A stretch of DNA of 64,000 nt from IMG/VR virus record IMGVR_UViG_3300037010_002253, positions 1 to 64,000 of that record; one strand, given 5' to 3'. Source of the DNA: a virus. The notes under the pieces are model-generated. The model saw only the letters and a list, made by a program, of their open reading frames with translations. It was not told the origin of the DNA and made no database searches. Below, piece by piece: positions 4,943 to 11,980 of this stretch. The first letter of the stretch is position 1, and every line of letters starts with the position of its first letter. The position numbers and the translations under genes are program-made.

Positions 4943-5023
4943 TGTTTCTCCTCTCCACGACGTCGGTCGCATGGCGAAGGTGTTCACCGCCACGCGTGAA
5001 CACCTCCAACTTGGTAGCCGTCC

Positions 5024-5488
5024 TCAGTCTTCCATCATCCCGAGGTCCATCATCGACGCGTACTTCTCCCAGCCGGCGATGATGACGTGGTCAACCAGGG
5101 GGACCCCGACCGCCTCTGCGGCCTTCACGACCGTCTTCGTCATTCGGACGTCCTCCACCGATGGCGACGGGTCGCCCGACGGGTGGTTGTGGACGAGCAC
5201 GAACGCCGATGCGTGCGCCATCAGGACGACCCGCAAGATGTCCCCCGCCGAGACCGCGCACCCGTGCAACCCCCCGCGCGAGACCTCGTGGCAGTACGTC
5301 GCCTGGTTCCGCCCGTTCAAGCAGACGATGTACATCCGCTCGACCCCCTCCGACAGCGCCCGCTCCCGGAGCAGCTCGTGAACATCCCGTGAGGTCCGGG
5401 TGTACCCGGCCACCGACTTCTCGTACTCCGACGGCTTCTCCTTCACGATGAGGATCCACCCAGCGAAAGCGTTCTTTTTCGTCGTCAC
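5024..5488 (-). CDS. RadC-like JAB/MPN domain protein
   Basis: E...HNHPSGDPSPSVED...LVDHVII; GTG start after the last AGGGAG of the tandem repeat. Confidence 0.9.
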   Translation of the reverse strand: MTTKKNAFAGWILIVKEKPSEYEKSVAGYTRTSRDVHELLRERALSEGVERMYIVCLNGRNQATYCHEVSRGGLHGCAVSAGDILRVVLMAHASAFVLVHNHPSGDPSPSVEDVRMTKTVVKAAEAVGVPLVDHVIIAGWEKYASMMDLGMMED

Positions 5489-5568
5489 TTGTCTCACTCC
5501 CTATTGTCTCGCTCCCTATTGTCTCGCTCCCTATTGTCTCACTCCCTATTGTCTCACTCCCTATTGTC
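5489..5568. repeat. Tandem repeat of 15 bp, 5.3 copies (TTGTCTCRCTCCCTA)
   Basis: Five contiguous units plus ttgtc; on the minus strand each unit contains AGGGAG. Confidence 0.95.
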
Positions 5569-5850
5569 GAAACCTGATCCGCCGTGTGTCTTGTCCGCGC
5601 CGGGTCCGTACCATCGGTCATGACTAGACGTCGTGAAACCGCGGACGCGCCTCTCCGGTTCCCGTGGGACGAACCTCAATCCGATCTTCGCCAACAACGC
5701 CCGCAACTCCCGCACGGGGACGTGTGTGTGTTCGTTCAGACAGAGGAGTTCCGCTGTCGTGAACGTCAGGTCGTCGTCGTCCAGTTTGTAGGTCACGAAG
5801 GAAACAACGGAAGTCATTTCCGGTGGTGCAGCGGGTCGCTTCTTCTTCAT
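5554..5850 (-). CDS. Hypothetical protein
   Basis: 98-aa ORF directly downstream of a sigma70-like promoter; GAGGG RBS. Confidence 0.65.
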   Translation of the reverse strand: MKKKRPAAPPEMTSVVSFVTYKLDDDDLTFTTAELLCLNEHTHVPVRELRALLAKIGLRFVPREPERRVRGFTTSSHDRWYGPGADKTHGGSGFDNRE

Positions 5851-5876
5851 CCCGTGTCCCTCACTCTGTACTAGAC

Positions 5877-5905
5877 AGAATACTACGTCGGGTGGGGATG
5901 GTCAA
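5877..5905 (-). promoter_or_regulatory. Sigma70-type promoter
   Basis: TTGACC-N17-TATTCT on the minus strand, 26 nt before ATG 5850. Confidence 0.75.
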
Positions 5906-6071
5906 GTGAATCGGAACACTTCCCGTCGTTTCCTCCCCTCCATCGAGTACGGTCCGCCCCCGCTGTGTCCGAGGACCCAAACCCCATTGTCAAACCGTCC
6001 GCCTCGCCCCCTGATGGATACCAGGAAACCAGACCGCCTGCTTCGCGCACGATGGCCGACAGACCCCTCCC

Positions 6072-6162
6072 AAGTTCATGTGCGGAACATTTTTCAACGG
6101 CCGCCAGACTGTTACTAAGCTCATGTGCGGAACATTTTTCAACGGCCGCCAGACTGTTACTA
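6072..6162. repeat. Tandem direct repeat, 2 x 45 bp
   Basis: aagYtcatgtgcggaacatttttcaacggccgccagactgttact twice with 1 mismatch; intergenic. Confidence 0.9.
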
Positions 6163-6374
6163 CCCCCATCTGCTCACGCAGGAACGAGCCTAACCCCCTG
6201 GGGGTCCCCCCCGGGGGGTCTCGTCGGGCTCGCGCCACCAGCGCGTCGCGGGAGACGTTCGTGGGTCGCCGCCGTCCGCAGCACGGTCTCGGGGTGCTTG
6301 TGGATGTTCGCCGCTTTTGACTCCTGTTGCTTGTCGACTTCGTCGTGTGCAGCAATGTCCTCCGTTTCGTTTCC

Positions 6375-6821
6375 TCACTTGGGGTGGGGCACCTCCTCCT
6401 GGGGGTAGTACCGGGCCGGGTAGTCCTCCACGACCACGGTGTACCCAGACCGGCGCGCCACCCTGGCCTCCTCCCAGGGGATGTAGCCAGTGTCCTCCGC
6501 CCACTTCGCCCAGCGGGCCTTCTCCGCCTCGATCGCCGCGTCATCGGTGTCGATGACGGGGATGCTCGCGATGGGGCTTCTACTCTCCCACCACCATCCG
6601 CCCCCCTCGGGGCCACCCCAGTTCTGGGCGCAGGAGTAGACGTTGATGTATTGGATCAGCTCCTCGACGTCGTGGACCCGAACGGTCTCGCAGAGCTTCT
6701 CGCTCACGAACTCGCTCGTGACCTCTTCCCAGCTATTCGCCGAGACCTCGGTCACGGAGAGCGAGTCGCTCTCCCCCGAGATCGTCTGCGACGACAAATA
6801 CGCCACCTCGAATCGCTTCAT
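6375..6821 (-). CDS. Hypothetical acidic protein
   Basis: ATG 6821 preceded by GGAGGAC; GGPEGGGWWW motif. Confidence 0.7.
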   Translation of the reverse strand: MKRFEVAYLSSQTISGESDSLSVTEVSANSWEEVTSEFVSEKLCETVRVHDVEELIQYINVYSCAQNWGGPEGGGWWWESRSPIASIPVIDTDDAAIEAEKARWAKWAEDTGYIPWEEARVARRSGYTVVVEDYPARYYPQEEVPHPK

Positions 6822-6893
6822 AGCAACGTCCTCCGCTTCCGCGCCCACTTGCGCGTCGCTACCCACCACGATGTCGTGATGGGCAGCAGCTCG

Positions 6894-7157
6894 CTAGTGA
6901 ACCATCGCGCTATGTTCCGCCCACTTGGCCGCCTCGCTCTCGACCTTGTCGTCCCTGTGCGCGTTGAACACCCTCACTTCGCGGTAGAGGCCCCGCTTCC
7001 GCAGACGCCGCGCCGTGCGGCTCGCGACGTCCTGGGTCGCGTAGGAGCCCCAGGGTCGAAACCCGAGGTGCTCGAGACCTGGGAGGATGACTCCCACGAT
7101 GAACGGCCTCTTCCCTTCCGCGGGCTTGCGACCCGAGGAACTTTTGGTCAATCCCAC
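6894..7157 (-). CDS. Hypothetical protein
   Basis: 87-aa ORF in the gene chain. Confidence 0.5.
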   Translation of the reverse strand: MGLTKSSSGRKPAEGKRPFIVGVILPGLEHLGFRPWGSYATQDVASRTARRLRKRGLYREVRVFNAHRDDKVESEAAKWAEHSAMVH

Positions 7158-7327
7158 TGCTTCACCGCGCCTTTCATGGCAGCCTCGACGAACAGGTCCT
7201 CATTGAACCGGGGGCTATCCGCCTCGAAGAACGCCACGAACACCCTGACGACGAGCATCTTGTCCGCGTACGACGCCTTCGTTCGCTGCAAGAGATTCGC
7301 CGCCGCTACGTAATCCTTCTTGGTCAT
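7148..7327 (-). CDS. Small phage protein, 59 aa (MTKKDYVAAA...DSPRFNEDLFVEA)
   Basis: Below the ORF-track cutoff; strong GGAGGAGG RBS; hand translated. Confidence 0.7.
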   Translation of the reverse strand: MTKKDYVAAANLLQRTKASYADKMLVVRVFVAFFEADSPRFNEDLFVEAAMKGAVKQWD

Positions 7328-7351
7328 TTGCTTGTCCTCCTCCGATTGACT

Positions 7352-7387
7352 TCAACGAAGAACATTGCAGGCACGTCCACCGCCAGG
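7352..7387. repeat. 3' arm of a 36-bp long-range inverted repeat (partner 8772-8807)
   Basis: 30/36 match to the reverse complement of 8772-8807. Confidence 0.85.
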
Positions 7388-7392
7388 AGTCG

Positions 7393-8688
7393 CTACTGCT
7401 TCGTGATGATCTTCACGACGTCGCGCACGGCCTTTTTCGCCGTGTGGACCGTCGTCGCCGCCGCCTGGAGGTCGGTCTTCTTGAGCGCCGCCTCCGCCCT
7501 CTTCGCGTCCGCCGCCGCGACCAACGCGCGCATCTCGTCGATGGTGGGGATCTTCGCACCCTCCGCCGCCTTGACCGCCTTCGATTTCGTAGCGGCGAGT
7601 TTCTCCGCCGCCTTCGCCGCGGCGCGCTTCCGGTTGGACTGCTCGGTCGCGGTCTCGCTGTCGCCCAGATGGCGACCCTCGGGGACGTTCCAGACCTTGT
7701 CCAGCTCGTTTCGCTCCGCGACCGCCGCCAAGTGGAGATCCTTCGCCTTCGCATTGTAGGCGACTCGGTTCTCCTCCTTGATGAGCTGCCGCAGACCGAG
7801 GAGTTGGTCAACCATCCCCTTCCTGTCCAACCCCTTGGGGAACCTGACGGACTTGTGACCCGCGTTGGTTTCCCCGGCGAGACCGTCGAACACGGTCTTC
7901 GCCCGCCAGATCGAACCGATGTCCGCGCTCATCAGGTACTCAGTGACCTTCTCCGCGTTGCTGCTGGAGAGGATCGCATCGCGCTTGAGCTGCGCGATGT
8001 ACGCGTTGAGAAAGAGCCCCTTCCCCCGCGCATTGAGGAACTTGGCAGCCGCCTCCGCCGCCGCCTTGCCAGCGTCGTCGAAAGTGAAGACCAGGTTCCC
8101 CGTAATGTCGGGGTCAACGGCCTCGCCACACACGAACATCTCCTCGCGACCGTCGCCAAGAAGGAGACCGTCGAACTTCCCGAGCGGCTCGATGATCTTT
8201 CCGTCCTTGTCCGTTCGGGCCAGGATGGGGAGACCAAAAGCCTCCGAAAAGTCCATCTCGTCGTCGTTCGGGAAGAGGGTACCCGTGAGGGTGAGCACCG
8301 TCATTTTCATGACGTGGAACGCCCGCTCGAGTTTCGGGAACACCAAGGGCGACTCGCGGGTGAGGTTCTTGATCCCCCACACCACCATACCGACCTTGAG
8401 GTCCTCGAAGGAGAGCCCGGTCGGGAGACCGGGGTACTCCCACTCCCTCTCGACGACCGGCGGCTTCTCCGCCTTCTTCGCCTCGATGACGACGGCAGGC
8501 TTCTCGTCCGCCTCCGCGGGGGTGATCGGCTTGACCTCAGTGGGGACCTTCGTCTCCACCTTGGTCTCACCGACCATTTCCGCGAGGACGTCCTTGGCTT
8601 CCGCGGGGGTGATGGGGGCCCTAACCTCCATCGCCTTCGCCGCCTTCGCCGCCTTCGCCGCCGCCTTCATCATCTTGATCTTACTCAT
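7393..8688 (-). CDS. Hypothetical protein with Ala/Lys-rich termini (431 aa)
   Basis: ATG 8688 with AGGAG; MSKIKMMKAAAKAAKAAKA; PITPAEA occurs twice. Confidence 0.8.
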   Translation of the reverse strand: MSKIKMMKAAAKAAKAAKAMEVRAPITPAEAKDVLAEMVGETKVETKVPTEVKPITPAEADEKPAVVIEAKKAEKPPVVEREWEYPGLPTGLSFEDLKVGMVVWGIKNLTRESPLVFPKLERAFHVMKMTVLTLTGTLFPNDDEMDFSEAFGLPILARTDKDGKIIEPLGKFDGLLLGDGREEMFVCGEAVDPDITGNLVFTFDDAGKAAAEAAAKFLNARGKGLFLNAYIAQLKRDAILSSSNAEKVTEYLMSADIGSIWRAKTVFDGLAGETNAGHKSVRFPKGLDRKGMVDQLLGLRQLIKEENRVAYNAKAKDLHLAAVAERNELDKVWNVPEGRHLGDSETATEQSNRKRAAAKAAEKLAATKSKAVKAAEGAKIPTIDEMRALVAAADAKRAEAALKKTDLQAAATTVHTAKKAVRDVVKIITKQ

Positions 8689-8711
8689 ATCTCGACTCCT
8701 GTGTGTTTCCG

Positions 8712-8910
8712 ACGTCCACCGTCGGGTTCCAGGAAGCAACCTTGGTTATTTACCATCTTTGCCTCCCAGAACCCGACGGTGGACGTGCCTGCAACGTCCT
8801 CCGCTGACTTCTCTCCCCGCCGGTGTATTTTCCGCAGTTGGGAATCATACACACTGACTTCTCACCCTCCGCGGGGAGAGAAGTCAACGGAGGACATTGC
8901 TACACACGAC
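8712..8910 (-). promoter_or_regulatory. Structured leader built from overlapping inverted repeats
   Basis: 8712-8729 with 8769-8786 is a perfect 18-bp IR; 8791-8820 with 8871-8900 is 28/30; 8886-8910 with 6342-6366 is 24/25. Confidence 0.7.
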
Positions 8911-9782
8911 TTTCCCACCCAACCAGGGGGGAAAGTTTATAGTTGGTTCTCCCTATTCCCTTCGCTCTCACCGGAGCCGCACCTTCGCCGCGCTTAGTAA
9001 TCCGTTTCACTTTTCGCCAACGTTTAGAGCAGGTCCAAGTGACTGGAACCACTCAGAGTTTCCGCTTCCGCGCTGAAACCCGCTAGGTACTCTGATTCAC
9101 TTCTTTGTCGCGTCCGATCGTCGGTTGGATCCTGGTGTCACCCTTGGGGACTAGAGAACCATCGCCCCTACACGCCGCGCTGTCCCCTCACAGGGGACGC
9201 GGTCATGAGAGACCTCGCGTCGCCCGTCGCACAGGACGGGTCGCGCGCCGGGACGCTTCCTAGTACCGCCCGTGGTCACTCCGCGGAACGGTTCTAGGGG
9301 ACGCCACGCCCTCTCCTGGTGTCCCAGGACGGGAAGTGACGTCGCGTCAATGTCAAACACCCGTGGGGGTGTCCCGGTTTCGTGACCCGATCCCGCGCTC
9401 CTCCGGAGGTTGGGGGGGTGTCCGCCGAGTCCTTCCCGCGCCTGTCGCGCGTCCGCTCCCCTGTCCTCGGTAGGGGTCCCCGTCGGTCCGTTGACCGGAC
9501 CCCAACCGTAGTCACTCCCCGGACAACTCGCAATAGGTTCCGTTCATTTTTTCCGACCCCCGCGACACTCCTAGAGGGGGTCTAGGATCCGGGGGTGCCC
9601 TCGCGAGGAATCGTCAGAGATTACGCCACGTTAGGGTGGGAAAGGTATGACAAGTGAGTCCGTTCACTTCCCTATCCTCGCCCCCGCTACTTTGGGGGGT
9701 GACGTAAGGAAGTGAATGAACACACTTACGGTGTACGCTTTTTCCAGACTGGGCACCCCGCGGGTACCATCTGCGCCCGGTT

Positions 9783-10073
9783 TCAGGGGGCTGGAGGACG
9801 CTTGCTCGTCTGGGTGGTCGGAGGACGACCACCGGCGGCGAGACGCGCCTTCTGCGACGTGGTCAGCCGGGAGACCCTCGGCTGGACTTTCCACTGCGAT
9901 TCCCGAAAGTTAGCCTGCTCGGGTGGGTGCTTAGGGGAGTAAGCAAGCAGGATCTTTTCACAGGCTCGAAACCTCAAGATGCCCCCACGGTCGGCGATGG
10001 TGTCGAGGACCGTGGTGGCCTCCTTGGTGGGGGTCAGGGTGGCGGTCGGCCGGGTACGTTTTGGCGTCGTCAT
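9783..10073 (-). CDS. Hypothetical basic protein
   Basis: ATG 10073 with AAGGAG RBS. Confidence 0.45.
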   Translation of the reverse strand: MTTPKRTRPTATLTPTKEATTVLDTIADRGGILRFRACEKILLAYSPKHPPEQANFRESQWKVQPRVSRLTTSQKARLAAGGRPPTTQTSKRPPAP

Positions 10074-10140
10074 TGTGTAGCTCCTTACCAGAAAACAGCG
10101 CAAGGCACGGGGGGGCGCAAGACACTTTTTGGGGGGCGGC

Positions 10141-10197
10141 ACAAAACGATGCAAGATATTTTTTGTGGGGCAGAACAAAACGATGCAAGATATTTTT
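10141..10197. repeat. Direct repeat, 2 x 23 bp, AT-rich
   Basis: acaaaacgatgcaagatattttt at 10141-10163 and 10175-10197; degenerate third copy near 10115-10130. Confidence 0.85.
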
Positions 10198-10457
10198 GGC
10201 CACATCCGCCCGTCGCAACGCGGAGGGGTTTTCCGCTGTAAAATAGCGCACTTACAGCAGCCGGCCAAGTGAGTTGGGTGTACTACCGCCTCCCCCACCT
10301 ATCTCCTCCCCTCCCTCCAGACGTGGGAACATCCTGCACCCCTCCTATCCTCTTCGCACCTCTCTACACTAAACAAAGAGCTTCCCTCGTCCCGATTATT
10401 CCTTCCGCTCCCGCAAACTTGCCATCGCCCCGCGAACCCGTTTCGGGCCCCTGAACG

Positions 10458-10492
10458 CAAAGAACCCACCTCGCTTGTGGCAAGGTGGGTTC
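10458..10492 (-). terminator. Probable intrinsic terminator
   Basis: gaacccacct/aggtgggttc stem with short T run on the minus strand, after the last gene of the chain. Confidence 0.6.
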
Positions 10493-10528
10493 CTGCTCCC
10501 TCTGGGGGTCTGTGGGGTCTCTCTGCTG

Positions 10529-10738
10529 CTACTGGTCCTCGTACGTGATGGTGAGGGTGATGGTCTTGGTGCGCTTCGTTCCCCCCTCGGCCAATGCCTC
10601 CCCGCTCCCGCGAACTTCGCGCAGGTCGAGGTCCGTGATCACGCCTTCCGCCGCGACCCCCATTTCGAGCTCCTGCGCCTTGTCACGCAGGACGTCAGCC
10701 ACTTCGACCCGCTTCCCGTGCTCTACGCCGTCTCGCAT
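10529..10738 (-). CDS. Hypothetical protein
   Basis: 69 aa; AGGAG RBS. Confidence 0.6.
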   Translation of the reverse strand: MRDGVEHGKRVEVADVLRDKAQELEMGVAAEGVITDLDLREVRGSGEALAEGGTKRTKTITLTITYEDQ

Positions 10739-10747
10739 GGTGTCCTC

Positions 10748-10939
10748 CTACCAGAGCGTCTCGTGGATCTCTTCCGAGATTTTCCCGCAGAACTTGGCCA
10801 CGGGAACATCCCCTCGCTCCGCCGCCATCCGCGACTCCGAGACCCAATGCATGTAGGTCTGGAGGGTCATCGCCCACCGGATCGGCTCCTTCCGCCGGTC
10901 GATGAGCTTGGTGAAGTCGGTGTTGACGATGATGCCCAC
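10748..10939 (-). CDS. Hypothetical protein
   Basis: GTG start after GAGGAGGGAG; 63 aa. Confidence 0.5.
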   Translation of the reverse strand: MGIIVNTDFTKLIDRRKEPIRWAMTLQTYMHWVSESRMAAERGDVPVAKFCGKISEEIHETLW

Positions 10940-10941
10940 GA

Positions 10942-11142
10942 TTAGACTCCCTCCTCTTCCACGAACCTGGCTTTCACCCCTCGCCGCTTCGCGTCTTCCA
11001 TGGCCTCGCGCTTCGTCATCCACGGGTACAGGACGCGGCCCGTCCACGCCGTCTCCGAGTACCCGCGGTGCCACTTGAACCCGCCTTTTGCGACCCTCTC
11101 CACGTCCCCGCGATAGTAAAAAATGATCGTCTCTTCCATCAC
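10942..11142 (-). CDS. Hypothetical protein
   Basis: 66 aa, overlaps the upstream stop. Confidence 0.55.
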   Translation of the reverse strand: MMEETIIFYYRGDVERVAKGGFKWHRGYSETAWTGRVLYPWMTKREAMEDAKRRGVKARFVEEEGV

Positions 11143-11354
11143 TCACGGGCCTCGATCACCCGAACTCGCGCATCTGGGCCAACGCTCTTGATCCCGGGGT
11201 AGTAGACGCCCATGCACCGCTCCGCTTCCTCCTTGTCCGCCCACTCGTAGGGCCGCGGGGACTTGGTCGGATGGACGTCCTGCCAGACCTCCACGCCCTT
11301 CTTCTGCTCCGGGTCGTAGACCACGGAGAGGATCTGCATCTTCCAGGAGATCAT
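11139..11354 (-). CDS. Hypothetical protein
   Basis: 71 aa, ATGA coupling. Confidence 0.6.
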   Translation of the reverse strand: MISWKMQILSVVYDPEQKKGVEVWQDVHPTKSPRPYEWADKEEAERCMGVYYPGIKSVGPDARVRVIEARE

Positions 11355-11980
11355 CGCGACCTCCTGCTGAGCGCGCCGCTCATCGCGTCGTACGCATCAC
11401 GAGAGATCATCGGTGGGCCGTAGGACATCTCGTCCAGACGCACGGGTTCACCTGTGGCCCGCCCGTATTGATCTACCGACTTGCGCTTCGCGGTGTACGC
11501 CTCGTCCTGCTCCCGTCGCGACATCAAGAGCCACTTCTCTACTTCCGTGACCGTTGGGCGTGCCCCTTCTGGGGACAGCCCCATGATCTGTTCGCACGCG
11601 CGGAGCAGCTCGTTCGCAAACTCCGCTCGGCTCGCTTCGGTGTGCCTCGCGTACTCTTCCTTGGAAGTGACGGCTTTTCGTTCCTCATCGAAGACGGATA
11701 CGTCATCGTACGGAGCGCGTCGGATCACGCTTTGTAGGTCGAGAAAATCCTCCCGCGCCTTAGAGTGCGCGCTCGCTTCGATGAGGAAACGGAAGACTGC
11801 GCCCAGGTCCTTCGCCCCACACCAGTGAGTGATGAGGCGCTCGAGCGTGCTAGAAACCATCAGCCACATCCACGCCTCGTCCGCCCGCGTCTGACTGATG
11901 AAGTCTTCCTTTGAGGCCGTCGTCTTGGCCTTCTCCACCGCGCTCCCCACGACCACGCGCTTTTTGCCGTCGTTCCTCAC
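11351..11980 (-). CDS. Hypothetical protein
   Basis: GTGA-coupled start at 11980; 209 aa. Confidence 0.65.
   Translation of the reverse strand: MRNDGKKRVVVGSAVEKAKTTASKEDFISQTRADEAWMWLMVSSTLERLITHWCGAKDLGAVFRFLIEASAHSKAREDFLDLQSVIRRAPYDDVSVFDEERKAVTSKEEYARHTEASRAEFANELLRACEQIMGLSPEGARPTVTEVEKWLLMSRREQDEAYTAKRKSVDQYGRATGEPVRLDEMSYGPPMISRDAYDAMSGALSRRSR

Follow-up and report, generated by a model that had tools for sequence, protein, structure and literature searches.

Nested leader-trailer complementarities around a four-gene phage block: a possible strand-exchanging RNA clamp

Pairing between the two ends of an mRNA is documented in bacteria in a few single-gene cases, and long-range helices are documented targets of RNase III (PMC11780869, PMC3868564, PMC5737220). 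The 5'-UTR and 3'-UTR of the icaR mRNA of Staphylococcus aureus form a duplex that is an RNase III substrate (PMC3868564). [quoted passage not shown] Here we describe a locus of an uncultivated phage in which the end-pairing principle is unusually explicit: one predicted clamp (25 bp, spanning 2.5 kb) encloses another (36 bp, 1.4 kb), both compete with leader hairpins for the same bases, and a further distal arm coincides with a ribosome-binding site. Positions are those of the window, the whole 64,000-nucleotide stretch of DNA that was analysed, and genome-wide counts refer to the complete 81,362-bp phage genome.

The phage locus resembles icaR in pairing leader with trailer but differs in the length of its inner helix, I1, at 36 bp. 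The icaR pairing covers the working Shine-Dalgarno region, whereas the working ribosome site of the 431-amino-acid (aa) phage gene, AGGAG at 8697-8701, lies outside all four phage helices (I1-I4) and the one such site open to coverage is that of the 148-aa gene (6819-6837), through the leader arm c2. Unlike in icaR, a second phage clamp encloses four genes, both leader arms would first be locked in strong local hairpins, and the pairing itself is predicted. With hbs the locus shares a long-range leader-trailer helix within one mRNA; the hbs helix, however, closes a short monocistronic mRNA with 14 bp, whereas the phage helices reach 25-36 bp, are nested, bridge 1.4 and 2.5 kb and have local folds as competitors. 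Long duplexes from distant mRNA segments are likewise common to the B. subtilis RNase III targets and the phage, but the former, mapped by end sequencing, bridge hundreds of nucleotides, while the phage arms lie kilobases apart and their cleavage is putative.

Related principles operate outside ordinary mRNAs. The sequences flanking 16S and 23S rRNA pair as processing stems and loop out a long RNA segment, and the 5'-3' pairing of hok mRNA (fold-back inhibition, fbi) has local folds as rivals and is remodelled during RNA maturation. The phage flanks are predicted to pair in the same way; unlike in those RNAs, the segments that would be looped out are ordinary protein-coding genes, with no rRNA, small toxin ORF or antisense RNA. 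An analogy with type I toxin mRNAs, drawn in a first-pass annotation of this DNA, found no support: no small toxic (hydrophobic) ORF and no antisense partner were seen, and the genome has no confident plus-strand gene. The proteins of the four enclosed genes all look soluble.

The block consists of four minus-strand genes, in order the 431-aa gene (7393..8688, called from its open reading frame and GC3), the 59-aa gene (7148..7327), the 87-aa gene (6894..7157) and the 148-aa gene (6375..6821). Throughout the complete genome, confident genes of at least 150 aa lie on the minus strand (45/45) and none on the plus strand. The 431-aa protein has no match in Pfam, PHROG or PDB and belongs to a tiny family: its only homologues are P0002, P0003 and the distant P0007, and a search of 5.8 billion clusters yielded two homologues (54-56% identity), one of 1.84 billion representatives two matches. 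The 148-aa protein gives weak matches to PHROGs without an assigned function. A consensus scan of 8690-8950 returned no promoter-like site and no minus-strand terminator-like site, which together with the uniform gene orientation gives indirect support to a single transcript that carries both arms. No match to the RNase III domain PF14622 was found in the complete phage genome (0/1). The sequence of the locus is identical in four DNA runs, and no relatives were found in IMG/VR, JGI metagenomes, GTDB genomes or GenBank phages.

All four inverted repeats reported by the first-pass annotation proved to be present where it had placed them. I1 joins 7352-7387 to 8772-8807 (36 nt, six differences) and in minus-strand RNA forms 30 Watson-Crick and six G-U pairs with no mismatch; I4 joins 6342-6366 to 8886-8910 (25 nt, one difference; 24 Watson-Crick pairs, one G-U, no mismatch); and I3 joins 8791-8820 to 8871-8900 (30 nt, two differences; 28 Watson-Crick pairs, two G-U, no mismatch). 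The match of 8712-8729 with 8769-8786, earlier called perfect, does exist but is the core of a longer repeat, I2 (8712-8746 with 8752-8786, 35 nt), which on the minus strand has 29 Watson-Crick pairs, three G-U pairs and three true mismatches. The gene geometry agreed with the annotation, I1 enclosing the 431-aa gene with its 3' arm 5 nt past the TAG stop and I4 enclosing the whole block. A fifth minus-strand helix (19 bp, four of them G-U) connects the leader at 8904-8886 with the ribosome-binding site of the 148-aa gene at 6837-6819.

In the MFE fold of the leader, a small minus-strand hairpin (8909..8936) lies at the 5' edge, directly upstream of the first arm. This arm, c2 (8886..8910, minus strand), is the 5' arm of I4 and in RNA reads as an anti-Shine-Dalgarno sequence (UCCUCC) with a 10-nt tail; its alternative partners are 8805-8791, locally, and 6837-6819. 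The 5' arm of I3 (8871..8900, minus strand) overlaps the I4 arm by 15 nt, I3 being a 30-bp helix with a 50-nt loop, and its 3' arm (8791..8820, minus strand) carries a GGAGGA core and overlaps the I1 arm by 17 nt. That I1 arm, c1 (8772..8807, minus strand), is the 5' arm of I1, lies 84 nt upstream of the 431-aa start codon and shares 15 nt with the 5' arm of I2, a local minus-strand hairpin (8712..8786) built of a 28-bp unbroken helix, a 3x3 internal loop, four more base pairs and a 5-nt loop. The 431-aa gene does not use the GGAGGA of c1 as its ribosome site, so a simple on/off control of gene 1 is not expected. Because the local and long-range pairings draw on the same bases they are mutually exclusive, and on this point the coordinates bear out the earlier reading.

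The distal arms, also on the minus strand, sit at gene borders. The 3' arm of I1, c3 (7352..7387), lies in the 65 nt that separate the stop codon of the 431-aa gene from the start of the 59-aa gene; c5 (6819..6837) covers the ribosome-binding site and start of the 148-aa gene, is complementary to leader positions 8904-8886 and has a 15-nt core in common with c1; and the 3' arm of I4, c4 (6342..6366), heads a non-coding stretch. The repeat arms all occupy non-coding positions: the leader, two sites just past stop codons (5 nt for the 431-aa gene and 8 nt for the 148-aa gene) and the ribosome site of the 148-aa gene. Neither c3 nor c4 has a strong local partner (local fold z of -0.28 and +0.25, respectively). 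The locus as a whole is flanked by two repeat-rich non-coding stretches.

These helices stand out from the rest of the genome. In a genome-wide scan for unbroken Watson-Crick plus G-U helices with spans of up to 5 kb, the four longest on the minus strand (36, 30, 28 and 25 bp) all fall at this locus; the next longest on that strand has 20 bp, and no plus-strand helix exceeds 21 bp. On the plus strand the same type of scan breaks I1-I4 into pieces of at most 18 bp. A self-blastn of the whole 81-kb genome returned three inverted matches, two of which are I3 and I4. A small set of short modules, confined to this locus, recurs in mosaic fashion among the repeats; a 13-nt core has four exact copies in 81,362 bp, none of them outside this region, and the likeness among copies extends beyond any one site boundary.

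Such a layout raises the question of a role at the DNA level, with the repeats serving as sites for a regulator protein or as crossover sites for inversion of the intervening 2.5 kb (or 1.4 kb). Gin/Hin-type systems invert few-kb segments flanked by inverted repeats of about 25 bp in phage genomes, and the phage repeats of 25-36 bp around 1.4-2.5 kb resemble them; the four exact core copies found here only, and the position between two repeat-rich stretches, would suit this explanation too. Unlike Gin/Hin, however, the locus has no recombinase gene, neither Resolvase (PF00239) nor Phage_integrase (PF00589) having a match in the complete 81,362-bp genome (0/1 each). No inverted form was seen among contigs of the four DNA runs: those from three runs that span the arm 6342-6366, and those from one run that span 8886-8910, have the reference orientation with no strand-changing joint listed, although contigs can hide rare forms. 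The mosaic similarity that passes any single site boundary also speaks against it, as does the strand asymmetry of the repeat differences (below), which is unexpected for double-stranded sites, and we regard a DNA-level role as improbable. A nested IS- or MITE-like mobile cassette, with the arms as terminal inverted repeats carrying the 431-aa gene, would explain why imperfect 36-bp repeats, a leader, one large ORF and a repeat right past its stop recall the layout of an insertion sequence. Against this, the 431-aa family is tiny and matches no known family, the genome holds a single full unit and no further copies, and the arm patterns had no matches elsewhere (28-nt pattern, 0 in genomes of 185,579 species; 23-nt pattern, 0 in the metagenome collection), which makes a cassette very improbable.

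The differences within the repeats are strongly polarized between strands. As claimed at first, all nine differences then known give G-U pairs on the minus strand and A-C mismatches on the plus strand, and with I2 added pair typing extends this to 12/12 transition differences; each minus-strand G-U pair of I1-I4 is an A-C or C-A mismatch on the plus strand. Predicted duplex energies for the minus versus plus strand follow suit, at -70.8 vs -46.0 kcal/mol for I1, -60.2 vs -51.1 for I2, -63.1 vs -54.8 for I3 and -47.4 vs -42.7 for I4. Two sites are common to I1 and I3, leaving about ten independent G-U sites, for which a one-strand outcome has a probability of 2 x 0.5^10 = 0.002; counted among all substitutions, G-U in 10/13 gives P = 0.0016 at p = 1/3. 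At four-fold sites the sense strand has more T than A (861 vs 522), so that a C>T mutational bias could push differences towards G-U without selection and explain part of the asymmetry, although by our own arithmetic, allowing p = 0.62 per site for this bias, 10/10 G-U still has P ~0.01. The inference of selection on single-stranded pairing therefore stands in that the asymmetry favours the minus (sense) strand, but the argument is weaker than first put, given the partly shared sites and the possible mutational bias. Taken at this weight, the asymmetry points to the minus strand pairing as a single strand. Four changes are private to c3 among the copies (in plus-strand letters, three G>A and one T>C), and all four keep its pairing with c1, its only strong partner, 1.4 kb away.

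Folding models show how local and distal pairings would compete. For the leader by itself the folding energy is -159.4 kcal/mol (z -14.4), a value matched by 0/200 shuffles. This very stable local fold forms 1.4-2.5 kb before the rival arms are made. When both strands were folded at full length with a nearest-neighbour model, the minus-strand ground state formed 25/25 pairs of I4 and 21/36 of I1, against 0/25 and 0/36 on the plus strand. Pair probabilities in the full-length model are 0.96 for I4 and ~1.0 for the first 21 bp of I1, and the outer half of I3 opens. Along a series of increasing lengths, the leader with c3 only keeps I3 at 0.88 and I1 at a mean of 0.34, so the local fold persists; adding c5 brings its pairing with c2 to 0.93, and adding c4 lowers that pairing to 0.00. 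Consistent with this, c5 is masked with probability 0.93 when the modelled RNA ends at 6800 and becomes free once that RNA has its full length. All of these values leave aside kinetics, ribosomes and the entropic cost of kilobase-scale loops. Among 82 genes compared for the best gapped duplex between a gene's 5' region and its own 3' region, the 431-aa gene ranks first (-83.7, z -3.8), its score being equalled or exceeded by 3/6,642 mismatched gene pairs, and no second gene has a comparable clamp.

The main competitor to long-range pairing confines the function to the two local leader hairpins, I3 and I2, which would stabilise the 5' end, serve as an RNase III site or tune translation of the 431-aa gene. 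The distal copies would then be by-products, c5 merely a strong ribosome site plus spacer, and c3 and c4 recombination relics that never pair with the leader in vivo. An extremely stable leader fold that forms first, the persistence of I3 at 0.88 against c3 alone, the T > A bias of the sense strand and the lack of a comparable clamp at any other gene of the genome are all in keeping with this explanation. It accounts poorly, however, for c3 and c4, which have no local partner despite lengths of 36 and 25 nt, are inverted copies set just past two stop codons and, in the case of c3, have retained c1 pairing through 4/4 derived changes; inverted copies 1.4-2.5 kb apart should moreover be hard to gain and keep without selection. 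On balance we find the local-only explanation rather doubtful.

Our preferred reading, to which we give somewhat less than even confidence, is that leader and trailer of the minus-strand (sense) RNA form a clamp by strand exchange, one that probably serves RNase III processing or mRNA stability. I1 and I4 each combine complementary arms in the 5' leader and just past a stop codon of the same gene or operon, the arrangement that defines such a clamp, and according to the models the mRNA can probably re-pair its leader strands with distal copies over 1.4 and 2.5 kb. The leader of the four-gene block (~8910 to 8700) would fold into I3 (30 bp) and I2 (28 bp plus), both long and near-perfect, and inverted copies of single hairpin strands would follow as c3 after the gene 1 stop, c5 at the gene 4 ribosome site and c4 after the gene 4 stop. 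As the RNA grows, these downstream arms may invade the leader hairpins by strand exchange: c3 would capture c1 (21-36 bp) and loop out the 431-aa gene, and c5 would initially capture c2 (19 bp) and mask the ribosome site of the 148-aa gene, until c4 took c2 over (25 bp) and the entire four-gene block was looped out. The sequences, their restriction to this locus, strand asymmetry and gene-border positions, and the model energies are established here; co-transcription of the block, strand exchange, RNase III cleavage and any effect on expression are inferred.

Long perfect RNA helices are plausible RNase III cleavage sites, and the minus-strand helices of 36, 30, 28 and 25 bp without mismatch reach the length at issue, about two helical turns or more. 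The earlier idea of RNase III processing stems holds to the extent that unbroken double-stranded RNA of sufficient length is present. Since every state of the proposed clamp contains helices of at least two turns, a substrate for host RNase III, its likeliest function would be to set mRNA processing and stability, which would be coupled to the progress of transcription, with the transient masking of the 148-aa ribosome site as a secondary consequence. The same complementarities could instead act in trans, if a nuclease (RNase III or other) cut I3, itself a plausible cleavage site as a 30-bp perfect helix, and freed a c2 leader piece as a small RNA acting on c5 and c4, with c3 acting on c1 of other mRNA copies. 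Intermolecular pairing was also considered for icaR, and mRNA dimers are listed in the methods of that study (PMC3868564). A trans-acting RNA nevertheless appears decidedly improbable here, as local concentration should favour pairing in cis and no Rfam family match was found beyond chance hairpin matches below threshold.

A more elaborate version of the cis clamp, which we think unlikely but worth stating, is that the mRNA senses its own length. Arms after successive stop codons would invade the two leader hairpins in a set order, the anti-Shine-Dalgarno strand being passed from c1 to the 148-aa ribosome site and on to a decoy just past that gene, so that defined points reached by transcription would govern when gene 4 is translated and when RNase III processes the block. 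Our literature search found no description of a multi-gene co-transcriptional strand-exchange cascade in bacterial or phage operons.

Should function be limited to the local hairpins, the locus is a structured leader of an ordinary kind, though an extreme one. If the clamp works as modelled, the phage would time the processing and translation of an operon through RNA strand exchange alone, and the locus would offer a clean natural test case of kilobase-range RNA folding in bacteria.

An earlier first-pass annotation described four inverted repeat pairs in which every difference is a G-U pair on the minus strand and an A-C mismatch on the plus strand. A repeat search recovered all four pairs at the annotated coordinates, and base-by-base typing agreed that each G-U pair becomes A-C on the plus strand. 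The inner long-range helix, I1 (8807-8772 with 7387-7352), comprises 30 Watson-Crick pairs, 6 G-U pairs and no mismatch on the minus strand, with a duplex energy of -70.8 kcal/mol versus -46.0 kcal/mol on the plus strand, and the outer helix, I4 (8910-8886 with 6366-6342), has 24 Watson-Crick pairs, 1 G-U pair and no mismatch (-47.4 versus -42.7 kcal/mol). The two local leader hairpins are I3 (8900-8871 with 8820-8791; 28 Watson-Crick, 2 G-U, no mismatch; -63.1 versus -54.8 kcal/mol) and I2 (8786-8752 with 8746-8712; 29 Watson-Crick, 3 G-U, 3 mismatches; -60.2 versus -51.1 kcal/mol). When both strands of the whole genome were scanned for unbroken helices of Watson-Crick and G-U pairs spanning at most 5 kb, the top four minus-strand places went to I1, I3, I2 and I4, in that order (36, 30, 28 and 25 bp), ahead of a helix of 20 bp; the plus strand reached 21 bp at most. 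Self-blastn of the 81 kb returned three inverted repeats, two of which are I3 and I4. Chance is excluded, and we take it as established that they form a real, strongly non-random and strand-specific RNA architecture.

The arms are a mosaic of four short modules copied in varying combination: I3 derives from a 15-nt upstream module common to arms c1 and c2, I1 from a 19-nt downstream tail common to c1 and c3, I4 from a 10-nt tail common to c2 and c4, and I2 from an antisense repeat of the c1 tail at 8712-8746. All arms have in common a 15-nt core, with the sense side A(A/G)CGGAGGAC(A/G)TTGC. Its 13-nt centre has four exact copies in the genome, all within 6352-8900, which rules out a genome-wide start-associated motif; a fifth copy carries two G>A changes. 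On minus-strand RNA the core is sense at three places (c1 at 8805, c5 at 6837 and c4 at 6366) and antisense at two (c2 at 8886-8900 and c3 at 7354-7368).

Every arm is non-coding and sits by a gene border in the minus-strand block of 431-, 59-, 87- and 148-aa genes. Arms c1 and c2 and hairpin I2 are in the leader, between 24 and 222 nt before the 431-aa start (8688); c3 begins 5 nt past the 431-aa stop and occupies 36 of the 65 nt before the 59-aa start. Arm c5 provides the ribosome site for the 148-aa gene (GGAGGA, 7 nt ahead of the ATG) and is complementary to c2 over 19 bp, and c4 starts 8 nt past the stop of the same gene. Other readings of the arms were rejected. Both c2 and c4 can be read as TTG-Leu-His-Thr-Thr, as if they were paralogous small-gene starts, but the gap from Shine-Dalgarno to TTG is 2 nt, and their frames are without the third-position G+C signal of this genome (codons judged by reading). 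A 14-codon upstream ORF from the c1 TTG is unlikely on the same spacing objection, and I2 and I3 have no U tract that would make either an intrinsic terminator.

For the leader RNA on its own (8950-8680) the predicted folding energy is -159.4 kcal/mol (z = -14.4), which none of 200 shuffles equalled. The leader is also the most structured 150-nt stretch on either strand between 5.3 and 10.6 kb. The modelled fold consists of a small 5' hairpin with I3 and I2 beneath a closing stem of 6 bp; the 431-aa gene keeps its AGGAG unpaired. That this local leader works alone is a less probable but by no means fanciful explanation. Following a check proposed in the first-pass annotation, both strands were folded from 8950 to 6300: the predicted minus-strand minimum free energy structure forms the long-range pairs (25 of 25 in I4 and 21 of 36 in I1, with 30 of 35 in I2 and 15 of 30 in I3), and the plus-strand structure does not (0 of 25 in I4, 0 of 36 in I1). 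Pair probabilities in the full-length model reach 0.96 for I4 and about 1.0 for the first 21 bp of I1, with at most 0.4 for its remainder; the outer half of I3 falls to about 0 and its inner half stays at about 1.0. These values were unchanged whether coding regions were blocked or free.

A series of increasing RNA lengths suggests how the arms could exchange partners. In an RNA ending after c3, I3 is retained (0.88) and I1 is limited to a 10-bp foothold; in one ending after c5, c2 pairs with c5 (0.93) and c3 with c1; and with c4 added, c2 shifts to c4 and c5 is released (0.00). The models describe equilibrium and ignore kinetics, ribosomes and loop entropy, and therefore show possible rather than actual events. 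The long-range arms may well pair in cis and matter, a reading we hold tentatively, the whole case being one genome and models; that they act in trans instead is highly improbable. A gene-by-gene gapped-duplex scan was too noisy to rank clamps in this G+C-rich genome. Only tRNA exceeded the Rfam threshold, and two miRNA-precursor matches at E up to 1, far under their gathering scores, were dismissed as generic hairpins.

The substitutions within the arms bear on whether this pairing has been selected, as the first-pass annotation claimed. With two variable sites common to I1 and I3, there are about 10 independent transitions, every one of them in favour of minus-strand pairing (2 x 0.5^10 = 0.002); if the three transversions of I2 are included, 10 of 13 substitutions give G-U (P = 0.0016, assuming one in three). 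At four sites arm c3 carries a base that no other copy has, and each of these changes preserves pairing with c1, its sole strong partner (local fold of c3, z = -0.28). Against this, four-fold sites on the sense strand across the genome hold T 861 versus A 522 (G 3696 versus C 3709), so some C>T bias is possible; at 0.62 per site, 10 of 10 has P ~0.01 by our own arithmetic. We conclude that the minus strand has likely been selected for its pairing as a single strand, though this is short of proof. The same trace would come from G-T wobble in single-stranded DNA, but the placement of the arms at stop codons and a ribosome site argues for mRNA.

A function at the DNA level is improbable: the genome contains no Resolvase or Phage_integrase family member, and no strand-changing (inversion) joint occurs among the contigs of four DNA runs, although contigs hide rare forms. 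Those contigs are identical to the window wherever they cover it, with no variants; in the reference orientation, arm 6342-6366 lies inside contigs of three runs and arm 8886-8910 inside one, the latter being a segment that the contigs of one run leave uncovered. We give hardly any credence to a mobile cassette. The arm patterns had no match in genome contigs or in metagenome contigs, and protein searches found only three other members of the 431-aa family (P0002 at 56% identity, on an 84-kb contig, P0003 at 54%, and the distant P0007); on these searches the repeats belong to neither a host nor a mobile repeat family. Two IMG/VR loci matching an 18-nt arm pattern (L005 and L006) were attributed to chance, blastn finding nothing in the former and 25 shared nt only in the latter.

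Co-transcription of the arms would call for a start upstream of the leader. A consensus scan found one sigma-70-like site within 5000-11500 (5905-5877, minus strand) and, at 8690-8950, neither a promoter-like site nor, on the minus strand, a terminator-like one; terminator-like sites were no commoner than in shuffles (5 versus 5.4). The approximately 1.1 kb upstream of the leader (8690-9785) shows no coding signal in third-position G+C, although genes are tightly packed elsewhere in the genome; it has no Rfam match, is followed by a 96-codon gene (9786-10073), and is possibly a long non-coding RNA or an origin region. Two parts of it, 9150-9400 and 9600-9850, are locally structured, with z as low as -5.5. 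AGTG-N7-9-CACTT palindromes give 10 strand-matches versus 1.9 expected, a count reached in 0 of 100 shuffles. Five places, all non-coding and in the first 10 kb, are 2851-2867, 5904-5921 (adjoining the -35 of the sole predicted sigma-70-like promoter), 9037-9053, 9652-9669 and 9710-9727; a sixth, 6489-6506 within the 148-aa gene, matches on the plus strand only. By sequence the set looks like operators for an early-region regulator, and the copies at 9037, 9652 and 9710, upstream of the leader, could be operators or promoters, which fits co-transcription of the arms without showing it.

Further repeats flank the locus. A short way upstream of the 96-codon gene, which starts at 10073, the minus strand at 10100-10200 carries two direct 23-nt AT-rich units ending CTTGCATCGTTTTGT and two shorter CTTGC copies; these may be promoter or iteron repeats. 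Downstream of c4, the non-coding stretch contains five tandem 15-bp units (5500-5574) and two tandem 45-bp units (6054-6143), the latter a break point in sequencing-run assemblies. Assemblies also break at a GCC-rich low-complexity run (8632-8666) encoding the Ala/Lys-rich N-terminus of the 431-aa protein, which draws many unrelated metagenome contigs, so the depth peaks at 8478-8819 do not reflect this phage.

None of the four enclosed proteins matches a family with known function. The 431-aa protein has no Pfam, PHROG or PDB sequence match and no Atlas lead; its AlphaFold model is poor (mean pLDDT 52.5), and a fold search returned only generic helical hairpins (Z at most 8.2), which we discarded. 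The genes around them code, among others, for a DpdA-like transglycosylase, a DNA repair protein and a pyrophosphatase, and therefore mark a region of nucleic-acid metabolism. The 81,362-bp virus record, of which the window is the first 64 kb, has 127-bp terminal repeats, is rated complete and has a G+C content of 61-67%. Its genes include those for a family A DNA polymerase, RecA, a DnaB-like helicase and a tail sheath; with coding regions filtered strictly, the 45 genes that reach 150 aa are all minus-strand genes, and the plus strand has none. The virus is present in DNA runs from microbial mat and sediment, and the four runs listed as containing it include no RNA run. Its polymerase has a best identity of 31.4% to GenBank phages, and thus there are no near cultured kin. 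GenBank phages gave no match by megablast with 6000-9300 or by tblastn with the 431-aa protein, and IMG/VR gave no relative when searched with that protein or with the tail sheath. Searches with A1, the query alignment, yielded 153 pattern matches in IMG/VR, 271 in JGI metagenomes and 36 in GTDB genomes, none of them confirmed.

By sequence and models, the locus resembles several known cases of long-range mRNA pairing. In icaR, a 3'-UTR anti-Shine-Dalgarno motif pairs with the 5'-UTR, creating an RNase III substrate (PMC3868564); in hbs, an end-to-end helix of 14 bp tunes how readily nucleases reach a structured leader (PMC5737220); and B. subtilis RNase III cuts in long-range intramolecular mRNA structures "across hundreds of nucleotides" (PMC11780869). 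The icaR clamp, as reported there, covers the ribosome site from which the clamped gene is translated, whereas here the corresponding site is left uncovered. A literature search of limited coverage found no description of a comparable multi-gene phage arrangement. Beyond the icaR, hbs and B. subtilis cases, this locus would add nesting across four genes, leader hairpins that compete base for base with the long-range helices, and a third target in an internal ribosome site, a design that is explicit and directly testable.
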